A DNA stretch of 64,000 nt from Protoeuglena noctilucae (lineage: Eukaryota). Shown in pieces: positions 2,933 through 39,800 of this stretch. The translations under genes were made by a program, and so were the position numbers. Location of the stretch: positions 372,001-436,000 of the forward strand of contig OY253676.1 in assembly GCA_958009085.1 (NCBI GenBank), given 5' to 3'. A model generated the notes under the pieces. That model saw nothing but the letters and a program-made list of their open reading frames with translations, was not told where the DNA came from and did no database searches. The number at the start of each line of letters is the position of its first letter. Position 1 is the stretch's first letter.

Positions 2933-3300
2933 GCTGTGGTCGCTCCTTGCTGAAAGATGTTGACGCAGGACCACTGGCGGTCTCAGGCCGAATTCGCGGC
3001 GTCTTTGAGTCTGGCCATGATCACGTCTGGCGCTACTGCCTGGCAATTGGTCCAGGACCCTGCAAGCTGCTCTTGAAGTGCCGGCCCAGCAGTGTGCGCG
3101 GCAAGGGGACACGGCCCCCCTCGCGCTGCAACCTGGCTGGACTCACCCTGGGGCCTCCTGTGCGCCACGCCCCCGCCCTCCCCCTTCGCCCCGTTAGCCA
3201 CTCGTCTCATCCTGGCACGGCAGGAGCGACCCGCAATTTCAATGCGGTATCACATTGCACATAAGCGCACGCGCGTCTCCAGGGGCCGTGACTGGGCGTG

Positions 3301-4843
3301 ATGGTGAGCGTGTGGGTAACAACGCCGGCCGAGCGGCCAGACGTGGCAAGCAGCGCCTCTGGAAATGATAGTATACGTAGCTTGCTGCAAGAGAAAACAA
3401 ACAAAGCCCTCGCAAGACCGCCATCGGTCCCCATTGCACGCGAACCGACGCTGGATGCCAGCAGTCATGAAGCGCTGCAGTGCGCCGCTGCGAGCGCGGC
3501 AACCGCGAGGCTTCCTCACAACCTGCTCCATCCACGCTGTTTTGCAAGGCGGCGCGGTGGGAGGTGACGGTAACGTCCTTCCCTCGGCGCCATCCCCGTG
3601 CCCGTGGGGATTGGGCGGGTCTGCAGTTCCAAGGCCTGCCGGCGTCCGACGAGGAGCTGTTCAAGTTCCACGCGCTGCGGTCGCGTTTAAGGTACGACGC
3701 GGCAGGACACCAGGCTTCCCTCCGCTGCGCGCGTGTGCTCTGCTGAAGTCGCAGCCTCGCGACTTTTCCCCAGGGAGGGCATCCGGGCAGAGCGCGATGC
3801 CATTGCGCCACTGAGCAAGTCTGTGGAAGTGAGCGAAGAGAGGATCCGGGCAGGCCTCCGTCAGCACGTGGTTTGGGACGAGCAGGCCAGGTACGGGACC
3901 CAGGAGCCCCAGACCACCAACTGCCCATCAGCTCATCGTCTCCAAACGCATTCGAGTCGCTCCCCCAGATCATTCGAGGAAGACCTGGCCCGCGCCATCG
4001 CCCAGCTGCGGTATGCACAAGCGGTGGCCAGGGCCTACCCACCCGAGCGCACGGCGGAGGGGTCTCTGCTCGTGGCCAAGGTGCGCAAGCGCGGGCCGCC
4101 CTGGAGACACCCAGGGCTGCACCCGCACGCGGAAGTGATGCACAGGAGCGCCTGCCCACGCAGTGTGCTCGAGACATCTACCTCGCGGAGGCCCACCTGG
4201 ACTACTTGCGTAGCCAGCTGGCGGGGCTAGAGGAGCGGCTATTGGCCATGCGCCAAGGTGCGGCTAGCCTTATGCGCCGGCGGGCACGCACCGAGACGAG
4301 CGGAGCGCAGGGCAGACGACCGAGACGAGCGGAGCGCAGGGCAGACGCACGGCTGTCCTGCTCCCACACGCAGAGCTTGGGCGGGACTCGGCGGAGCTGG
4401 CCAGGAGGAAGGAGGTCCTGCAGCGGCTCGTGGCGCAATTGAGGCAGGCATCCCGCCATTGCCGACAGAGCATGTGCTTCAAGCGGCTTTGGTGAGCGCT
4501 GCACTGCAAGCGCGGGTTGTCAGGCGCGGAGCAGCAGTGGGGCAGGTTGGATGAGCCCCACGTCACCTGCCACGCAGGCCCGAGGGGTGGCCGACTCCGG
4601 TGTGTGCATGCACGTGCGGTGAATGCTACAAGCAGCTCCGCGGGGGGAGCTGGGCGGATCAAAGGAGTGAGTTGCGCCTCTGGGGCAGGGCCTGGCCCAC
4701 ATGGTGTGGGGCCCAACGGGTTGAGAGGCAATACAAGATACTCTCCCCCCTGAGTCGCAGGTACAGCGCACCATGGCGTCGCTTTTGACGAGCTTGGTCG
4801 GATGTCGCCGTCGGGAGCCCTTTTCTCGCTCCAGCGTGCATAA
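3301..4843 (+). CDS. Hypothetical multi-exon protein, helical/coiled-coil, with a short Cys cluster (CACTCGEC) near the C-terminus; start uncertain
   Basis: A chain of GT-AG introns (donors near 3564, 3692, 3891, 4081, 4258, 4492, 4667) splices into a continuous frame (FQGLPASDEELFKFHALRSRL...SFEEDLARAIAQLRY...FSLQRA*) with TAA at 4841-4843. No family recognised. Confidence 0.55.
4290..4347. repeat. Exact 29-bp tandem duplication inside an intron
   Basis: accgagacgagcggagcgcagggcagacg occurs twice (4290-4318, 4319-4347). Confidence 0.9.
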
Positions 4844-27431: not shown

Positions 27432-28731
27432 TCACGTCTTGCGCCCCTCATCGCGCAGCAGCGTCTCCTGGTTGCTGGCCCCCTGCTGCCGGCTCGACCC
27501 GTCCGACTTAACGTAGTGCTTCCAAGGCACGGGGAAGAGGAGGGACGTGCTGCTCCGCCACCGCTGGAACTCCGCGTCGCCACCCCACCGCTCCTTCTGC
27601 TGCTTCTCTTGCAAGGGGATACCGGATGCCTTGAAGAGAAGGAGCATCGTGAAGAGCGGGCTCGCGACAGCCTGTGGAAAGAGAGGGGGCACGCGATGGC
27701 AGGTGGGACGCCGGGAGGACGCCGGGAGCAGGGGCCGTAGGGATGCCAGGCTGCTGTGGCTGGCTCACCACGAACTGCCACGTGCGCAGCATGGACGTGG
27801 AGAAAATGAAGACGCCCCACCAGATGCATATCTCCCCGCCGTAGTTCGGGTACCTGGCATAACTCCACACACCCACGTCAACGAACTTGCCCTGCGATCC
27901 GCTCCATCAGGGTCGGCATGACGCAAAGCATGGGCGTGATTAGCTTCATGCCGTGGCGATTGCAACGCGCGACACTTGCCTTGTTGGCGGGGTCCATTTT
28001 GAAGAAGAGCTTTTGGAAGTCCGCCGTGCATTCCAGCACCATGCCGAGCGCCCACAGGACTGGGCCAATGATGTCCTGGGGCTGGAGCCCGGCGGGGTCG
28101 GCGCCGGTGCCGTTCACGATGATGGCCGGGAGGCAGTTGACCCAGCACCACACGGACTGGAGCCAGTAAAACACGAAAAGCGTGGCGGGCTTGTCGAGGA
28201 CGTCGTGGAACCGGCTGTCGCCCCAGCGCAGCGCCCGATAGAAGAGGAACAGGCCCAGACGGAGCGTCCAGACCGTGATCATGACGGAGATGACCACCTG
28301 CCTGCGCGGTGGGGGTGCGGAAAGAAGTGGTGGCGCATGCGTCGCTTCCTGGTGCGAAGGCCGCCGCCTGGGTGCGCGCCGGTACCTGGCTGGCGGGCCA
28401 TCCGGCGTGCCGGCTCCGAGAGTAATCCCGAGCATCAGCAGGTTCGCTATCGTTCCCGTCACATCGTACACGCGCTCCGTCTTGAGGGCACTCGCAATTG
28501 CCCACGAGACCGTGTTCACTCCGAGGGACAGGACTGTATCGCAGGGTCGCGAACGTCAGAAACGGTCATTATCAATGGACGGGTGCGGCGACGCGGCCAG
28601 GAGACGCGCGGCGAGGCACGTGAGTGGATGGACAAAGCAACGCAGCGAGCACTCTCACTATAGGCGATGAGGAGGCTCTGCTGGACGCAGCCCATGCCGG
28701 GGAAGATGGAAAGCCCGCAGTGCGCCTCCAT
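27432..28731 (-). CDS. DUF1295 / steroid 5-alpha-reductase-like membrane protein
   Basis: Motifs KTERVYDVTGT, WTLRLGLFLFYR, DSRFHDV, ECTADFQKLFFK, GVWSYARYPNYGGEICIWWG and SGIPLQEK. Confidence 0.9.
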
Positions 28732-29106
28732 GGCTGCCGAGACGCCGGGCCGAAGACGAGGCGGGTGGCCAAGTTGACCGAGCCCGTTGCACGAGCCTAG
28801 CACTAGGCTCGCGGGGCCTGTGCGGACGCGGAGGACCTTGGAGACGCGCGACGGATGAGAGACTTTTGCACGAGCGAGGGGGTTCCAATGGCACTTCAGA
28901 ACAAGCATACGAGCTCGGTGTCCGTGGTCGATGCTATCCGGCGCCCGTCGCAAGACGTATAGGAGAGGACTGCCTACGACGCGAGTCCTCGAGATCCACG
29001 CAGCGACTGCACGAGTGCAACGTGCCAGCCTGGCACGGCAGTGGCTGGGATGCACCGCATGCCAACAAGTGCCGGACTTGCGGAGGCAATTCGACTGCTG
29101 TCGCTG

Positions 29107-29935
29107 TCATTTCTTCCCCTTCTTGGCCTTCTTGAGCGCCTTCTTGCTGATGTTGGCCGCGGGTCCCGCTGCGGGCCCCATGGCGGAGCCAAGCACGGCC
29201 GCCAACTCCTCGGCCCTCTTGAAGGGATCCTCGCCCGGCTGCAGGAAAGGGATTCAGAGTCGATGAGTGCACCGAAGGCATCACTGCCGTACCGCAGAGG
29301 GCACATGGGGCAAAAGCTCACGACCACTGCCAGGGGCGACTAGGGCGGGACGCACCGGTGGCTTGCCCCCCCGCTTGACCCTGTCCTGGCTTGTGCGTAT
29401 TGCCTGCGGCGAAGTTGTGCGACGACTCAGTCCTGAGCTGGAGGTGGCAGGGGAAGCCAAACGACATCCCCCGCCGGCCGTCCTGAACACGACCCAGGCA
29501 GGAAAGTTAAAGGAAAGCAAAATGGATCGGCAGAGCATCACCTCGGCAATTTTGATGTACACGTCCTTGCGAGAGCGGACGTCTGGGGAGCAGAGCTTGC
29601 CCGTGTCGTCTCGCAGCGCCACGCGGAGTCTGCCCCTCGTCAGCCAGTCCCGGGGGTACGCCTTGTCCTCGGGCTCGCAAGCGAACCCGACTTTCGTCGC
29701 CGCCTGTGCGATTTCCTCAATCGTCGGCCCTTGAACCGCCTTCTCCCGCGCAATTCTCCGCCCCTCCGCGGTCGTCTTGCTGCATGCAGGCACGCTCGTC
29801 TGCGATCGCATGCAAGCGAGCGCGGCGCGGAGCCATGAGAGCCCCCAAAACATCGACGCACGACTAGCGCCCTCGCCTGCTGTCCAGGTAGGCCGGGTAG
29901 ACCACCACCCGGCGGTCTGTGACGGTGTCCACCAT
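29107..29935 (-). CDS. SRP19: Signal recognition particle 19 kDa protein
   Basis: MVDTVTDRRVVVYPAYLDSSKTTAEGRRIAREKAVQGPTIEEI...EDKAYPRDWLTRGRLRVAL, with a Lys-rich C-terminus (KKAKKGKK*). The first intron has a GC donor at 29876. Confidence 0.95.
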
Positions 29936-29961
29936 CTAGGGCGAGCGGACACGTGGAGCAC

Positions 29962-30365
29962 TCAGTAAGAGTCGGTGCGGTCGTACATGCGGGCGAAGTA
30001 GTGCATCATCTGCCCCCAGTAGCCCTTGCTGTTGCTCTCGAGCTTCGCCTCCTTGGAAGTCTCCTCCACCCTCTTCTTCAGGTCCAGCTCATCCACCGCC
30101 GTGATATGCTCTGCAAACAGGCCGGCTCGCGGGCTCAGGAGACAGCGCTGCCCTCGCGTCAGTCGCTCTCACGAGTGAATCGGTCCAGAAGGATGCGAGG
30201 CCCCGGTGGGCTCACGAGGGGCGGAGGGCGCCGGCAGATTTGCGCGCGGGCGGGTCTACGCTCACTTGTGCGCGGAGGCGCGCCGCGGACGGCCTCCTTG
30301 GCCTGCCCCGCCCTGCTGCTCGTCTCCTTGGTCTGCCTACCAGCGCTGCTGTTGTCCCTGTTCAT
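29962..30365 (-). CDS. Small unknown 82-aa protein (2 exons) ending 26 nt upstream of the SRP19 start
   Basis: GCC-ATG at 30365. Exon 1 runs 30365-30266, then a GTGAGC...TTTGCAG intron 30265-30111, then exon 2 30110-29962 in frame. Product MNRDNSSAGRQTKETSSRAGQAKEAVRGAPPRTKHITAVDELDLKKRVEETSKEAKLESNSKGYWGQMMHYFARMYDRTDSY*. Strongly G/C-ending codons, as in neighbouring genes. Confidence 0.72.
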
Positions 30366-30664
30366 GGCCAGCCGAAATCGCAGTTCCTCGCACGTGACAT
30401 CAGCGGGGCCGCTCTGTGCAGCCAGCGACATCACGCGCACGGCCGTGTGACGCTGACGCGGAGAAATCCGACGCAAGAACACTGTAAAAACTGTTCTGAA
30501 CAGTTTTCACTTGGATCCATTTGCCTCATATGCTGAGTGCCAGTGCTTGAACTTGCCTGCCGAGCAGCCTTGGCGTCGCTGCTGGCGGTGGCGAACGAGG
30601 ATGGGACTTCTCCGTTGAGGGGTCGCTTTCCCGGAGCCGCCTTGCGCAAGGCGGCTTAGGCACG

Positions 30665-33600
30665 ATGCCGGCACCTGACCGTCGCATCAGGCTCCACATC
30701 GCCAGTGGGCCTTCCCAGGGGCAGGCAGTGCAGTCCGAGTGCAGATGGTGAGCAGGCTCCCTGCTCTCGGCCAGCCGAGCGGGTGCTGATATCGCGGCGA
30801 AGAAGCGCGCTTGTCCTTCCTCGCAGCTTGCTCCCGCTTCCATCCAACGCGAAAGTCGTCGCGGACGTCGCCGCCGCCATCAAGCGCTTCTTCGACCTCG
30901 ATGGCGAGCCAGCGCTGACCGTGGGAGGCTACGCCGTCCTCCCGGAGCTCCCCGCCTCAATTTTCCGGGACGACGATGAGGTTCACGTCACCGTGGCGCC
31001 CGCATCGCATCCCGCCCGCCGGAATCCCCGCCAGCAGTCCACACCAGTCGCCCAGGGAGCACAAAGGTTGGTTGCAGCAGCTTGGCCAGAAGGAGCCTGG
31101 GACACGCCACCCGCAGCCTGTTGATGATACGCTGTGCCCGCCTGGCCTGGCTGCAGGCGCACGGCGCTTGCTGCGACTCCTGGTGCACCCCACCCGCTGC
31201 CCGCCCCGAGGCCTGGGGGTACCGAGGCGAGACCCAACAGGGCTTCGGGAAAGGCCGTTGCGTCTGACGTGAACGCGGGCCTCGTTTCGTCGAGCTCCTC
31301 AGAGTCAGGGACGAGCTCGCGCAAGGGGGCGGGTCACGTGGGGTCGCCGGCATCGTCATCGAAGAGCCCTTCCTCATCCTCTCTTGCCTCGGACACCTTT
31401 TCCGCGGACGCGTCTTCGTCGAGCGCATCGTCCTCCGAGACGTCTTCCCCTGCTTCCTCGTCGTTTGACACGACGTCCTCTGACGCCTCCTCTGACACGT
31501 CCTCCACTTTGGCCTCGTTGAGCGAAGCCCCTTTTGCGTCCCCGAGTCCAAGCGAGGCCTTGCCCGACACGCAGGGGCCCTCAGGAGGTCAGTGGCTTGA
31601 ACAGTGACGCGCGCGCTTTTTACATGCAACAGCGGCCTGGGTCGGGGTGCGTGTGATGGTGTCATGATATGCTGACCTCCACTGTGGCCCTTGGGCTCAG
31701 GGAACGAGGAGGACGCGGGGTCATCGAGCACGGACACCTCGGGGCCACCAGCTGCGCGCGGGAGCGAAAAGCCGGGGGGGCCTGAGGGGCCGGATGGGGG
31801 CGAGTCGGCGGCCAAGAAAGGGTCGAGCCGCAATGCGCGGCGGAAGGCGGCAAAGCGCAGACTGCGGCGACTGGGCGTGTTACCACCCAAGAAGAAGTGA
31901 GGAGCACGCTGTTGCGATGTGTGCCCAAATGTAGCATGACCCATAGTTGCTGGCGAACCTTGCCTCGCCTCACTCGCCTGCCGCGCTGCAAACCCCTGCA
32001 GGGTCTGGCGGCCAGCAAAGGACAGGACCAACGTGGCGGCAGCTGGGGGTTTGGAGCCTGCGGCAACGAAGGAGCCTTCATTACCAGCGAAGAAGCTCCC
32101 GGCTGCGAGGGAAGAGGAGGAGGACCGGGCGTCTCCGGGGCAAGGGCCAGAGGTCGCGGCACGACCTACCGACGTTGTCGTGCCCGATCACACCATCGCC
32201 CCGAATGGCAAGCGGCGCAGGGCCGTCCCCGACAGGGCGCCAGACCATGTGCGGGAGGACGCGCACGCGATGTCGTCGCCGTCGCCGGGGAGAGCGCCGA
32301 ACGAGCGAACGATGGCAGGCGTAGTTGCGACGGACAACGGGGGAGGGCGAGCGGACCTGCAAGGAGGGTCGCCCGCGCACCTGGCTTTGGTAGCCGAGGC
32401 CGTGGCGTCTTTGGCGTCGTCGGGGCTCGAGCCGCAGGGCATGCCGCCTGCAGGGACGTTCCTTGCCTACCGTGTGCTGGAGATGGGACCGGACCTGTGC
32501 CCAACGGTGTCTGAGTACCGCTTGGGAACTCTCGTGGAGTGCGATGCGGCGGCCAACACGGTCGCCCTCGCACCGCACCCCATGGCGCCCCACGCCGGGC
32601 TGCGGGGTGCCCAGGACGGTACCGCCGATAGTAATGGCGGCGGTGAGGGAGACGACAAAGACGGAGGGGTCGGGTGTACGAGGCGTCAAAGGGTGCGGCT
32701 GGAGGCGGAGTCGCTGTACGATGCTGATGGGGTGCTCCGGGTGGCGATGGGTGCGCTCCAGGGCGTGCGGATGGTGAGCGAGGAGGCACTGGCGGGCGCG
32801 CTGAGAGGGAGGGAGGCGGTGGGCACAGAGGGCGAGGGCAGCGGCCGAGCACCGGTCCCTGCTGCTTTAGGAGTGGCCAGGGGCCCACCCAGCAAGCGGA
32901 CTGCCGAGAGTAGCCAGGGGCCAAGCCAGGGGCAGCCTTTGGACCCAAGGATGCTGGCGGCGAATGTTTTGCTCCTCAGGTGAGGGTGCATTTGCGCGGT
33001 CATGCGGGCATGTCTTTGTCTCGGTCGCTCCGGGCCGATCGTCTCGCGAATTGCGAATCAAATCGTTTCGTTTGTTAACTCGCAACGCAGAGCGAGGCGC
33101 GCCGCCCTCGTTGGGGCTCTGGCCCAGTCGCCCACGGGAGCTCCAACGGCTGCGGTCGCATCCATGGAAGGTCTGCCGGGTCCGCCCTTGCGAGGACCCA
33201 CGGCTTTCCAGCACCCTGCCGTGGGGTCGCCCGCGCCAGTGCAGACGGCGCCGCACGGCGCAGCCTCTCAGTCCCAAGACGGGTCCGGCTCTGCAGCGAA
33301 GGGTTCCAGGGGCGGTGTTTCTGCACAGGCCCAGCCGGCCACGACGCCCGGGCCAGAGCCCCAGTCAGGCGGCGCAGTGACAAGCCCTGCACCCCAAGCA
33401 GGGAACTCAGCCACAGGGGACCCGCCTGAAGTCGAAGTGCCCATGGCTGCAGTCGGCCCCACAGATGCGCAGTCGGAGGGAGGGCATGGGAGTGGTAGCG
33501 TGGAGGCAGGCGAGCGCAACGGTAGCGCGGGGGGTAGAGGCGAGGGCGGGGCGCAGGGGGGCAGGGGGCGGGGCAGGGGGCGAGGCCCCAGGCCGCGCCC

Positions 33601-33862: not shown

Positions 33863-36800
33863 TCACTTCCCCTCAAGGACGGAATGGAGAGCGAGGGCGG
33901 CGTGCTCTGCGGCGGCCGCCAGAGAAGCCGCGTCCTCTTGGGCCCCTCCCTCGGAGCCGGCCATGCCCAACGCCTGCACGGCCCGCACCAGCGCTGCGAC
34001 GGCGTTGGCGTCGATGCCGTCCGCCGCATCGTCGGGGAGAGGCTCTAGGCATGCCTGCGGGGTAAGACGGGGTACGGATGGGTGATTAAGCAATGTTATC
34101 AGCTGAGAAAGGGGCGATTGGGCGGGTGACGATTGGACTTTGCGAGGCGGGGCACGCCTCAGCGGTGTGACGAGAAACGCAAGCGACGAGCCAAGACATC
34201 AATGCGCGCGTCCTCGTCCTCACCAGCGCGCGGAGGATCCCCTCCTGCACGGCCGGGACCGGCGCGAACCCTCCGTCCCCCGGCTGCAGGCACTCGGCGA
34301 TGGCGTCGGCGTAATCGGCAGCAAGCAGCACGGCCCCGCACTCTCGGGGGTGCATGTCACAGAGGAAAGAGAGGGCCTCGGAGGCGAGGGCCCCGACACC
34401 GCCGTCCGGGTGCCTCAGGAGGTCGACGACGACCGGCAGCGAGTCGAGGAGCGCGGTCGACGCGCCGGCCCCTGGGGCGTCCGCGTGCCTGGCGTGCTGG
34501 TCCCTCTCCAGCAGGGAGCAGCACAGGTCGAGGACGGGCTCCAGGAAGGGCTCGACGGCGTTGTCGTGGGCGTAGGACAGGACGGCGTGGACGCGGGAGG
34601 CAACCGACAGCCGCGCGGCGTCGGGGAGCGACAGCGCCCCACCCACGACGAGGGCGCGGCAGATGCGGAGGTTGTGGACGTTGTTGTTGGGGCTGTCGAG
34701 GGACAGGAACGCGAAGAAACGGGGCACGACGCCGAGGGACTGCACGGCGGGGAGCCACCGACCGCCGGCGTCCATCAGCGCAACGAAGATCTTGAGGGCG
34801 TTGAGGGGCATCAGGTCGGAACCCCGCTCCTCGAGGAGGCCGGGGAGGAGAGGAAGGATGCGGGACTCGAGGGCCCGCTCCATGCTGGGGGACGGCGCCG
34901 GGTGTGGCGGGGGTTGCGTGCCGTCCGTCGATGGCCCGGCCCCCGCGTGGGACTGCCGGGACAGGTACGTGAGGACCACGTCCGAGAGCAGAGACACGCT
35001 CGCAAACCTGCGGAAATGGCAACGAGCGAGGTGAAGGTCAGGGTCTTCGGAGGGCGAGGGCGGCGGTGGGCCCGACGGTCAGTCGCACGTCGGCTGCTGC
35101 GACAAGGCGGTCTCTGTCACGCCGCCCGGCGCCTCACCGCATCTCCGAGTCCGCCTCGGGGTTCCCGACGACCTCGGCGAGCGCCGGTACGAGGGCCGTC
35201 GCCGTCGCCTCCACCAGTGCTGCCGGGGGCGGCGCTGCTTGCGCCGCCTCGCTCGCCCCGTCCCCGCCCGGCCTCGGACCCCCCGACGCGCCCACGAGCG
35301 CCGGCGCGTGCTCCTGCAGCGCCGCCATAGTCTGCACCAGCGACTCGCGGAACTCTGGCAGCCCCGTGAAGGACACACCGGGGGAGGTGACGGCCGTGGC
35401 GAAGGCGGCCAGGCGCGTGACGAGGTCCGGAGAGACGGCGGCGGAGCGCAGGGCCGGGGAGAGCAGCAGGGAGGGCAGGACGGTCATCTGGTGGATGGGG
35501 GACCGAGGCTGCCCGGCGCCCACGGCGGCCCGGGTGGAGCCCCCTGACGCGAACCTCCTCTTGGTCAGGGCCGCCAGGTCGTCTGCCGCCTGGGTCAGGA
35601 AGGTCCCCAGCTGCTCGGCGATCTCGTTGCGGAAGGCCGCGAGGGCCGCGCGGAGGTACGGCTCGCGTTCCCTGGAGAGCTTCTCCAGGCGATCGAAGGC
35701 CTGGCGGGGGCGGAGGTGAGGGGCGGGCGGTGAGGTGAGGGGTGGGCAGTGTGGCGGGAGAAGGGCAGTGGGGTGAGGGGTGGGCAGCGAGGTGCGGGGC
35801 GGGCAGCGGGGTCCGGGGTGGGTTTGCAGTGAGGGGTCACCTTGGGCCCAAGGCGGGCGAGGAAGCCGAGGGACTGTCGACACAAGAGCCCCGTGGTGAT
35901 GACGGCCTTGGCCTGCAAGACGGGCAGGGGCGAGCTGAGGAGGTGGAGGAGCCCGCAGGAGAGCTGGCGGTCGTCCAGGAGCTGGGTGCGGACGCGGGAC
36001 TGGAGGCCCTCACTGGCGGCGGCGAGGCTGCGGGGTTAGAGAGGGGCGGGGGTGCGGTGTAAGCGCAGAGTGGGCCTAGGAGCTAGTCTGTCCGTAAATG
36101 CATGCCTGAACATCATCCACGCGCCATCACGCACCTGAGCATGGTGGCAGAGGCCCCCTGGCTCTTGGAGGACGTGTCAGTGAGCCCTTGCACGAAAAGG
36201 CGCACGCCCCACTTGTCAAAGACCTGCGCCAGGAGCGCCGGCTGCACGCGGCACAGCCGGCACAGCGTCGACGCAGCCGTGCCCCGCAGCGCGTCCTGCT
36301 TGGTCGAGGACATGATCTGAGCCACCAGGAAAGCCGTCTCGGGCGTCGCCACACGCGTGCCCCAGTCGCCGCCCTGCGTCGCGATGTTCTCGATCGCCTT
36401 CAGCGCGTAGTGCTGCGTGACCTCGTCCTCCCCCGGCCGCAGCGTCCGCACGACCTGACTCAGCACCGTGCCAGGCACCTCCCAGGGGCCGGCCCCGGCC
36501 CCCGCGCCACCCGCGCCCCGGCCCTCCCCCTCGCCCTCCCCTCCCACCCCGTTGGCCGTGTCGCCGTCGCCGTCGGCCCCGCTCCCGCCCGCCCCCGCGC
36601 CCCGGTCGTGCTGCTGCGTCGCGCAGAAGAAGAGCAGCTCCCCCAGTGCCCCCATGGCGCGTCGCCTCACACGCTCCGCCGGGTCCTTTAAGGCCTCCGC
36701 CACCACCTCGAGGACCCCCGTGGCCGCCAGCTCGTCCGCGATGTACGTCGCGTGCCGCACGAGCCGCCCGATCACGCTGCAGAGGCGCACGCGTAGGCGG

Positions 36801-39800
36801 TCGTGCCGCACCGTCCGCAGCATGCGCACGAACAGCGACATGAGCGTCGAGTTGATGAGGAAGTTGGCCGTGCCCGCGTCCCCGCAGAGGGACTCGAAAT
36901 ACGCCAGGATGTTGATCTTGTCCGTCATGGCGCTGCGGGGCACGGGGCGAGTGCAAAGGGGCGTGAGGTTGCGCGGGGCAGTGGCAGAAGCAGTGCTGGT
37001 GAGAGTGTCTGTGGCCGGCCGTGGACCCAGCTGGTGACCAAGGCGACAAGGAACACGCGTGCTTTTGCCAGCAGTCACTTGCCCGGCACACTGGGGCCGT
37101 GCCGGGCCAGCGCCTCACCTGGAAGACGACAGAGCTGCGTAGATCTGCTGCAGGAAGGTTTCCAGAGACGCGGCGGGTGCCATGAGGACTTCTTGCAAGG
37201 ATAGGGGCTTGAAGGGCAGGGACCCTGTGGGAATGAGCGAATTGGTGGTGCATGCGATGGGTCGGATGGATGGATGTAAGCGGTAACAGACCCACGCTTT
37301 GCAACAAACACCAACGGGTTCCTGACCTGGATCCCATCGTGGCTCGGGAACGCGCTCGATGCGCCGGTTGCCGACGATCGGCTTGACCACCATGTCGCTC
37401 GCATGCCACACGACGTCGTCCAATCGGACATCCCCCCGCGCGGCGCCCATAGACTCGAGATTCCCACGCACCCCCACTCCCAGGCCCCCCGCCGCGGACT
37501 CGTCCGCTTCCCCGGCCTCCTCCCCGCGCTTTCCCGCGCGAGGGTTCAGGCCGAGCTGCGGGGTGGCGCTGGGCCGGGCATCCACCACCGACGGCGACCC
37601 CATGCGCGCCGCCTGCTGAGACAGCGTGCTCTCGACGCTCTCCGCCCGCTGCAGCGGCGCCGCCTGGCCCGCCCCCGTCCCCGGGCCGGGGCCGGGCGGC
37701 TCCCCGGGCAGCCCCATCTCCCGGCGCTCGCGCCGGGTGCCACCCACCCCTCCCGCCTCGCGCGACACGCTCGCCGGGGCCGTCGCGAGCGCCGCCCGCG
37801 CGGACGAAGCTTGCGACGCGTCCCGAGGCCCCGGCTGCGAGGTGGACACGGATGATGGCACCCCAGACCCCGCCGGCTGGGAGCTGGGCCGCGCTCCCTC
37901 GGACGACCCCAGCGCCGTCTCCTCCTCCTCCGCATCGGCGCGCTCCTCGAAATCCAACTGCGGAACACGGCGCGGTGAGGCGAATCCGCACGGGCCGCTC
38001 AGCCAAGCCATTGGGAGTGAGCGGCGATGTGTCTGGCACGCTGGCTCGACAACTTCGGGTTGTTACCACAGCTGTGCATGATACGCGAGTCCCACGCCCC
38101 GCTCACCTCGGCGTCCGTGTTGTCTAAGGCCACGTCGCCGCCCTGCACCCGGGCATGCCCTCCCGGCCCCGCGCCGCCCCCGGCACCCGTCCGCTGCTTC
38201 CCGTAGTCCCCGCCCGCGTCCGCGTCGCCCTGCTCCTTCTCCACGTTGCGCGACGCGATCTGCGAGATGCGAAACACGTCCACGCTCCGCCGCGCGTCGG
38301 CCGCCTGGGCCCGCGAACGCCTCACGGGGTCCTCGGCCCCCATCGGCGCCGGCTCGGGGGCCAGACCGTGCCGGCGGATGAAGGCATCCAGGGCGGGCTC
38401 CGCGGGGATGTCCCGGAGCGTGATGGGCGCTTTCCAGAAGGGGTGCTTGACTGCAAGCGGCATGCGAGAGCCGCAGGTGAGTGCCGCAGACCTCCCGCCG
38501 GGATCTCATTGCCTAATCCGCCCAGCGCGGACTACCACGCCGCTTCGGCGACCGTTCGGGGCGCATGAACGGGCGCATGAGGAGTGCGTGGAAGCCCACG
38601 TGTCCCAGCCACGCTCACCAATGTCGTGCCACGCGATGCGAGTGGCGGGGTTCTTGTCGAGCATGCGGGAGACGAGGTCCTGGAAAGCCGGGGAGTTGCC
38701 CTGAAGTGGTGCGGGCTCCGAGTGGAGGATGTCCGAGACAAGCTGGGCCAGGGTCGGGGCCACGAAGGGCGGCCGGCCGCTCGCCATCTCGTACAGCACG
38801 CATCCCAGGGACCAGATGTCCGATCTGAGGGTAAGGGAATCGAGACAGGCGCAGCGTCGGCGTCGAACAGGTTGAGAGAGGGCCGGCTGTTGCGTGGAAT
38901 GATGCAGCGGGAGCCCAACACCAGACCCTGGGTTGCATCGGCTCGCCTGGTGGAGTGGATGGCGCCTTCCATGAACAGCTCCGGCGCCATGTAGACGGGC
39001 GTCCCGTGCTTGGCCGTGGGCAACGGCTGCCCCGCCTGGGCCTGGCGGTTGATCTCGGTCAGCTTGCGGCTGAGGCCGAACCCGCCCAGCTTGAGCCGGC
39101 CGTTCTCGTCGAGCAGCACGTTGGACGGCTTGAGGTCGCAGTAAATGAAGCCCCGGTTGTGGAGGTACGTGAGAGACGAGACCAGGTCACGGGCAAAGTC
39201 GTGGATGGACGTCTCCGGGAGGGACATGTCCTGCTTGAGGAGAGCCAGGAGCGATCCCCCGACGCAGTACTCGAGAATCAACCACAGGTGGTTGGTCGTC
39301 TCGTACCAGGCGAAGAACTTCAGGACGCCCTGGTTGTCGAGCACATGCATTGCCTTAACCTCTTGCAGCACCCTGCGAAGCGCGGGAGCGTCGCGGGCCT
39401 CCGCCGGCGCGACTGTGCGATAATCGAGGGCATAGTGGATGCGGACGCGGGCCGCTCGCCTCGGCTTCTGGTCCTTGTCGACTGACTTGATGGCGTAATA
39501 GCTGATGGTGTGTTTCTTCCTCCCCTTGTAGACCACCGAGTGCTTCCCCCGGCCCACCGCCTCGTAGATGTGATAGTTGTTCTGCAGGGCGAGCGGGGGC
39601 CTCTCACGGATCGACGGCGCGGAGCCTCAGCGGGGGAAGCTGCGGCGTCGCCGAGCAGCTCAACCCAGCCAGGCAAGCTCCCAGCGCCGCGACCCTCGCG
39701 CGAGAGGTTCGGGTCTGCCATGTGGGACTGGCGTCGAAGACAAAGATCCGCGCGGAGATCCGATCCAGCCTCCTCCGGGCTCGGGCCACGACCGCAACGC

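Follow-up and report, generated by a model that had tools for sequence, protein, structure and literature searches.

The question raised by the locus described here is how a cell expresses SRP19, a protein of the signal recognition particle (SRP), from a gene whose start codon lies only 26 nt behind the stop codon of another open reading frame (ORF) on the same strand. The locus is part of a 64,000-nt stretch of the Protoeuglena noctilucae assembly GCA_958009085.1 (contig OY253676.1, positions 372,001 to 436,000 of the forward strand), which in its entirety is called the window and in whose coordinates positions are given unless another contig is named. An initial annotation of the window, made from its letters only, had drawn attention to a two-exon ORF of 82 codons directly upstream of SRP19 and had proposed that one transcript encodes both proteins. 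On balance, and with slightly better than even confidence, we regard the locus as a two-ORF unit of the nuclear bicistronic kind described in green algae. This reading builds on the observed anatomy of the pair, the splicing of the small ORF, an RNA contig that carries both ORFs, the coding constraint on the small ORF and its conserved tight linkage to SRP19. The elements of the pair, in the direction of transcription, are:

30436-30366, minus strand: minimum 5' leader of the small-ORF RNA, its extent taken from the longest RNA contig (run X1)
30365-30266, minus strand: small ORF, exon 1; 100 nt, 33 codons plus 1 nt, starting with ATG 30365; encodes the poorly conserved N-terminal part
30265-30111, minus strand: small-ORF intron; 155 nt, GTGAG...GCAG, phase 1
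30110-29962, minus strand: small ORF, exon 2; stop codon TGA at 29964-29962; encodes the conserved C-terminal 48 residues with the motifs KGYWG, MHYF and a final DSY
29961-29936, minus strand: inter-ORF spacer; 26 nt, no ATG, ending in CCCTAG; uninterrupted in RNA contigs (piece 29877-30110)
29935-29107, minus strand: SRP19 gene; 158 codons in exons 29935-29877, 29779-29542, 29403-29356 and 29238-29107

Every coordinate that the initial annotation had assigned to the two-exon ORF (30365-29962), its intron, its stop codon and the 26-nt gap before the SRP19 ATG was reproduced, and reading of the sequence followed by a scripted splice gave a small ORF of 82 codons (249 nt). The codon bias, previously described as coding-like, is indeed pronounced, with GC contents of 0.51, 0.46 and 0.89 at the first, second and third codon positions of the small ORF (0.55/0.64/0.88 in exon 1 and 0.49/0.33/0.90 in exon 2) and of 0.62, 0.50 and 0.84 in SRP19, in a window with an overall GC content of 65.8%. 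Since the same 2.6 kb also contains antisense and wrong-frame ORFs that reach or exceed about 100 aa, the length of the small ORF alone is not beyond chance at 66% GC. It is the codon periodicity, combined with the RNA-confirmed splice and the conservation presented below, that identifies the small ORF as a genuine, conserved, spliced protein-coding gene. The start codon stands in the context ...ggccATGaa and is followed by four internal ATGs, in agreement with the good GCC-ATG context and the several internal ATGs that had been noted earlier. Two more ATGs were found in the leader: one in frame at 30431, from which the protein would have 104 aa, and one out of frame at 30400 that opens an ORF of 12 codons. 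The in-frame ATG, 66 nt ahead of ATG 30365, would add 22 residues and stands 5 nt inside the end of the longest RNA contig.

The SRP19 protein itself is ordinary, and what is unusual is the position of its gene directly behind another ORF. Exon 2 matched the Pfam profile PF01922 (E = 2.1e-22; 80.2 bits against a cut-off of 25; profile positions 11-90 of 95), and the conserved N-terminal YPAY segment is present. A TAG stands in frame directly before the ATG, so the SRP19 ORF cannot begin further upstream. The claim that no intergenic space is left for SRP19 itself is borne out by the spacer, which at 26 nt has no room for a 3' untranslated region (UTR) and a promoter. Intron 1 of SRP19 (29780-29876, minus strand) has a GC..AG splice pair, the joint of which was confirmed in all three RNA runs described next.

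Transcription was assessed by comparing positions 28000-32000 with three marine metatranscriptome runs (X1-X3, all from one study) and one DNA run (X6). The evidence consists of assembled contigs, in which single molecules, transcript ends and rare variants are not resolved. The metatranscriptomes hold about half of the stretch's sampled words, as expected for RNA that has been spliced. Each of the three RNA runs yielded a single spliced contig that spans the small ORF, the spacer and SRP19 and agrees with the window at 0 mismatches. The joints in these contigs are those of the predicted introns (30110/30266, 29779/29877, 29402/29541 and 29238/29356) and are absent from the DNA run; all four introns of the pair have been removed, and the small-ORF stop codon and the spacer have been retained. 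The small-ORF joint at 30110/30266 skips 155 nt, reads CT..AC on the plus strand and occurs in X1, X2 and X3, such that an intron previously known as a prediction is now seen as a joint in three of three RNA runs and none of one DNA run. On the 5' side the contigs reach 30436 (X1), 30396 (X3) and 30381 (X2), i.e. 71, 31 and 16 nt upstream of ATG 30365, with side lengths upstream of the small-ORF joint of 171, 131 and 116, respectively. The spliced product is also represented by a 105-aa JGI/IMG protein (P0006, from a 2318-nt contig), which starts at a GTG just before ATG 30431; this ATG is thus contained both in the X1 RNA contig and in a cDNA-type protein entry.

The small protein was then compared with sequence collections. 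A phmmer search with the 48 residues of exon 2 against 1.84 billion representatives returned five matches, of which one (P0001) is the window's own exon-2 fragment and one (P0005) a true relative with 49% identity over a full-length alignment. The other three (P0002-P0004) were rejected as spurious, being repeat proteins matched in 5-6 short stretches. Word-indexed and profile searches, in which 1 of 1, 3 of 12 and 3 of 58 candidates matched, added a single new lineage, represented by P0008 (65% identity by BLASTP; 60-68% in MAFFT alignments), beside the lineage of P0005 and P0007 (49% identity to the small protein). Across the three lineages, 21 of the last 48 residues are invariant in MAFFT alignments, the final three included, and the N-terminal exon is barely alignable. 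Homologues of the 82-aa ORF, the absence of which, combined with a lack of translation, the initial annotation had named as evidence against its proposal, were found in two other lineages. Scans of viral contigs and of genome contigs gave no relative (82 and 61 pattern matches, 0 confirmed).

As regards family and fold, Pfam gave no match for either small-ORF exon at E values up to 1, and only one chance-level match (0.12) for three members of the family; a PDB profile search with the small protein yielded no relative (best E = 0.25), and the ESM Atlas returned no usable match with either the complete protein or residues 58-105. An AlphaFold2 model of low confidence (mean pLDDT 58.5, pTM 0.22) suggests a disordered N-terminus and, in the conserved half, two helices joined at the invariant KG. 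The same model places a helix at residues 15-26, in the region of the N-terminal extension that would start from ATG 30431. The small protein is thus probably a lineage-restricted protein of unassigned family, with a variable and probably disordered N-terminus and a conserved C-terminal half for which two helices are predicted.

A scan of metagenome contigs revealed three loci (L001-L003, GC 69-74%) in which the small ORF is again linked to SRP19; these are 98-99% identical to each other and are therefore counted as one taxon, represented here by L002:

L002 3016-3100 and 3491-3636: small-ORF homologue, ATG exon and exon 2, separated by a 390-nt GT..AG intron; product 76 aa

The intron of the L002 homologue is in the same phase 1 as that of the window, with conserved residues on both sides of the junction. 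An in-frame stop 42 nt upstream means that this ORF cannot be longer, and L002 has no counterpart of the N-terminal extension from ATG 30431. Its SRP19 ATG is at 3722, 85 nt after the small-ORF stop codon, and a second in-frame ATG follows at 3740. Between the window and L002, 93 of 158 SRP19 residues and 31 of 76 residues of the small protein are identical. Both flanks of the pair differ: upstream lies a divergent PQ-loop gene in L002 and a coilin-like gene in the window, and downstream a RUNKEL-like kinase gene in L002 and a gene for a DUF1295-family membrane protein in the window. The two genes have thus remained adjacent despite rearrangements to either side. At the level of the genome sequences, the tight linkage of the small ORF to SRP19 is conserved, being seen in two of the three lineages.

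Other properties of the junction are less constant. The spacer is conserved neither in length nor in sequence (26 nt in the window vs 85 nt in the relative), and a conserved frame relation of the two ORFs was considered and rejected, the offset being 2 in the window and 1 in the relative. Variation within the relative (L001 and L003 vs L002) amounts to two differences in the small ORF, both synonymous, and three in SRP19, two of them synonymous, numbers too small to carry weight. An Rfam search of the relative's locus gave 0 matches. Two further observations concern the surroundings of the pair in L002. A large conserved gene that encodes a protein kinase domain, HEAT repeats and a RUNKEL-type ARM domain occurs in both genomes (window 34236-39605, minus strand; L002 4928-9423, plus strand; tblastx segments 60-84% identical); it flanks the small-ORF/SRP19 pair on one side in the window and on the other in L002. 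Within the 9.6-kb L002 locus, GC content is lowest at 3161-3280 (0.40 on a contig of 74% GC), inside the 390-nt small-ORF intron, and this patch may represent an internal promoter, the remnant of a mobile element or simply an AT-rich intron.

The pair is flanked in the window by the following features:

29106-28732, minus strand: gap between SRP19 and the DUF1295 gene; 375 nt from the SRP19 stop codon to the next ATG, covered fully by RNA contigs
28731-28001, minus strand: start of the DUF1295-family membrane protein gene; introns 28658-28534 and 28384-28301; extends below 28000
30437-30534, no strand: gap of 98 nt between divergent RNA contigs; overlaps the lowest-GC patch at 30460-30559 (GC 0.40)
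30665-31900, plus strand: divergent coilin-like gene; ATG 30665; introns RNA-confirmed

The downstream gene matched Pfam PF06966 (E = 2.3e-18). Its distance of 375 nt from the SRP19 stop falls within the range of 180-380 nt that had been given as usual for tandem genes here, this being the one pair that was checked. On the other side, the divergent gene does start 300 nt from the small-ORF ATG, as annotated; its naming as coilin is less secure, as the match to Coilin_N is weak (E = 0.005; 17.1 bits against a Pfam cut-off of 32.9), and outside this match the gene encodes a long Ser-rich low-complexity region. The RNA contig of the divergent gene begins at 30535. Position 30460-30559 has the lowest GC content of the neighbourhood, and the 98-nt gap between the two contigs is a candidate for a bidirectional promoter region shared by the small-ORF unit and the coilin-like gene. 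Inside the low-GC patch, a palindrome of 21 nt (30487-30507; two arms of 10 nt and a single central base) may be an element of such a promoter. Rfam gave one sub-threshold radC match for the window, in the coilin-side leader (E = 0.055).

Bicistronic and polycistronic nuclear loci have been reported from green algae by Gallaher et al. 2021 (PMC7896298) and Duenas et al. 2025 (PMC11892635), including REX1-S/REX1-B, CDC26/TTM3 and loci with TOM22 or OST4 as ORF 1. The hallmarks given in the latter paper are an ORF 1 with a median length of 291-357 nt, inter-ORF distances with medians of 40-183 nt and short 5' UTRs, together with the statistical tendencies of a start context that is weaker for ORF 1 than for ORF 2 and of AUG depletion before ORF 2 (median observed/expected about 0.5) (PMC11892635). 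A colinear orthologous pair in another species served in both studies as a criterion for candidate conserved loci (PMC7896298, PMC11892635). The class is defined by a single mature mRNA with both complete ORFs, established by full-length Iso-Seq or EST data, and is further characterised by the lack of a monocistronic mRNA for ORF 2 and by translation of both ORFs in proteomics or ribosome profiling; for the small ORF of the window, the coding constraint supports translation indirectly. As far as these accounts describe such loci, the window resembles them in that a small ORF 1 (249 nt) precedes a larger housekeeping ORF 2 in the same orientation, the spacer is short (26 nt), the ORFs do not overlap and are in different frames, the 5' leader is short and ORF 1 encodes a small protein without assigned function. 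A colinear pair is likewise kept in another taxon (L001-L003, with 85 nt between the ORFs and different flanks). The algal loci are known from full-length reads, whereas the pair in the window is known from assembled contigs, and its host is a GC-rich marine eukaryote outside the species covered in the two papers. The small protein/SRP19 pair was not found in the supplements searched for SRP terms (7 of the 10 files of PMC7896298 and 7 files of PMC11892635), and a literature query combining 'bicistronic' with SRP19 returned, by title, nothing on algae.

Under the bicistronic reading, a promoter in the AT-richer gap of about 100 nt, shared with the coilin-like gene, would drive a transcript starting near 30440. 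After removal of the 155-nt intron, this transcript would consist of the 82-codon ORF (104 codons if ATG 30431 is used), the 26-nt spacer and then SRP19. We infer that both ORFs are present on one molecule and that this molecule is the template for SRP19: the small protein would be made by ordinary cap-dependent initiation, and SRP19 by those ribosomes that get as far as its AUG. Judged by AUG counts and start contexts, leaky scanning fits the relative well, with two ATGs in the 316 nt before SRP19 where 2.94 are expected (about 0.68) and a C at -3 of ORF 1 against a G at -3 of SRP19, and suits the window poorly. In the window, the internal ATGs open ORFs of 4, 15, 14 and 8 codons. Three of these terminate at the ORF 1 stop, 26 nt before the SRP19 AUG, and short ORFs of such a kind permit reinitiation. 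Some ribosomes may therefore scan past the ORF 1 AUG, and others may reinitiate after these internal ORFs; this mixture of bypass and reinitiation is proposed because the short internal ORFs end near the SRP19 AUG and pure leaky scanning is a misfit for the window. Folding revealed no excess RNA structure around the stop/start junction (z = -0.80 in the window and +0.86 in the relative), and an IRES-like (internal ribosome entry site) or shunting element thus receives no support at either junction.

Several observations weigh against this reading. The 346 nt before the SRP19 ATG of the window hold seven ATGs (observed/expected 1.85), the small ORF alone has an observed/expected ratio of 1.58 for its four internal ones, and the start contexts, -3 G/+4 A for ORF 1 and -3 T/+4 G for SRP19, run opposite to the published trend when judged by the generic rule, which may differ from the host's own consensus. 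The caveat in the initial annotation that the small ORF is ill-suited to simple leaky scanning therefore holds for the window, which, unlike the algal loci as there described, is not depleted in AUGs (1.85 vs about 0.5) and, by that rule, has an ORF 1 start context that is not the weaker one; in those loci, experiments favour leaky scanning, and AUGs added before ORF 2 strongly cut its expression (PMC11892635). The RNA contigs that span the pair also cross the 375-nt gap into the DUF1295 gene (piece 28659-29238, with two further introns confirmed), so RNA continuity is not specific to the 26-nt junction, and contigs that cannot resolve molecules, from three runs of one study, do not prove a single mRNA molecule with both ORFs. 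The conservation of the linkage comes from one other taxon, and no homologue of the small protein was found in any named proteome, the sources of the family being only Logan, ENA and JGI/IMG. The proposal of one transcript for both proteins accordingly stands in part, with the spliced contigs carrying both ORFs, the coding nature of the small ORF and the kept linkage in its favour and the unspecific contig continuity against it. As for the 375-nt gap, its coverage may reflect a 3' UTR of SRP19 that overlaps the next leader, or read-through transcription, and the unit may comprise three ORFs, with the DUF1295 gene as the third.

A serious though less likely alternative is that the contigs merge two overlapping, separate mRNAs. 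That of SRP19 would start within the intron or exon 2 of the small gene, and that of the small ORF would end inside or beyond SRP19; adjacency would then be kept only because, with the SRP19 promoter lying within its upstream neighbour, a break between the two genes would do harm. The crossing of an ordinary 375-nt gap by the contigs argues for it, since overlap of neighbours or read-through is evidently common here, as do the seven upstream ATGs, the G at -3 of ORF 1 and the T at -3 of SRP19, which make efficient translation of SRP19 from the long RNA doubtful. The low-GC patch within the small-ORF intron of the relative could be such a promoter, but patches of this kind also occur in ordinary introns, e.g. 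SRP19 intron 2 (29500-29559, GC 0.42). Moreover, no contig end or alternative form was found inside the small gene in any of the three RNA runs (although contigs hide minor forms), and a start upstream of the acceptor at 30111 would leave intron sequence in the RNA, whereas the depth in the intron bin is fully explained by exon bases. The AUG-poor ORF 1 of the relative, with its weak C at -3, looks adapted to the passage of ribosomes, an adaptation without purpose if SRP19 were expressed from a separate mRNA. A switch at the level of splicing, suggested in the initial annotation on account of the pyrimidine-rich ...CCCTAG before the SRP19 ATG, is in our view very improbable. In it, an alternative 3' splice site at the AG of 29937-29936 would remove exon 2 of the small ORF and toggle the output; yet the corresponding joint (30266-29935) is missing from all three RNA runs, in which the donor joins only 30110 (minor isoforms can drop from contigs), and the relative's spacer ends in ...ccggtg before the SRP19 ATG, with no AG at the equivalent place. 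The product would in any case start at ATG 30365 and, with an exon 1 of 100 nt, pass over the SRP19 ATG in a different frame.

The small ORF might also act in cis, as an upstream ORF (uORF) encoding a conserved peptide, with the nascent C-terminal peptide in the exit tunnel setting the level of SRP19 reinitiation and the free protein as a by-product. Conservation up to the stop codon at the C-terminus is typical of regulatory uORF peptides, and in the small protein conservation is concentrated in the last ~21 residues, up to the final residue before the stop in all three lineages. The small-ORF stop is close to the main AUG (26 nt in the window and 85 nt in the relative), and neither Pfam, PDB nor the ESM Atlas recognised a fold or family for the protein. 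In its position upstream of and close to a main ORF, and in a peptide conserved most strongly at the C-terminus up to the stop, the window ORF is like the conserved-peptide uORFs of plants. Regulatory uORFs are, however, usually shorter than 76-104 codons with an intron of their own, whereas the small ORF has this length and is spliced. Its conserved part, predicted (in the low-confidence model) as two helices meeting at the invariant KG, looks more like a folded or binding module than a short segment acting in the tunnel, and the length and sequence of the spacer are not conserved. We therefore consider a purely cis-acting peptide unlikely.

With the bicistronic unit as the favoured reading, the feature is real and well conserved, and the way in which SRP19 would be translated from it is mildly at odds with the current leaky-scanning model, which does not predict the arrangement found in the window. 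If confirmed, the locus would add a conserved bicistronic pair to the green-algal list, one that joins an orphan small protein to a core component of protein targeting, seemingly in marine picoplankton lineages that have been examined only indirectly before. It would also provide a natural test of ORF 2 translation behind an ORF 1 that is rich in AUGs and starts in a decent context, with an AUG-poor version of the same pair in the relative. The case would further illustrate how intron-split small genes are missed by ORF-based and prokaryote-style gene calls, databases holding only the exon-2 fragment apart from the one cDNA-type entry. A more speculative and, we think, improbable extension is that the conserved C-terminal peptide and the close stop form a long, spliced, peptide-dependent gate that tunes the synthesis of SRP19, or that the small helical protein works with SRP19 or the SRP as a lineage-specific partner, made next to it from one mRNA. 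In either case, a new small protein would be functionally tied to the assembly of the signal recognition particle.

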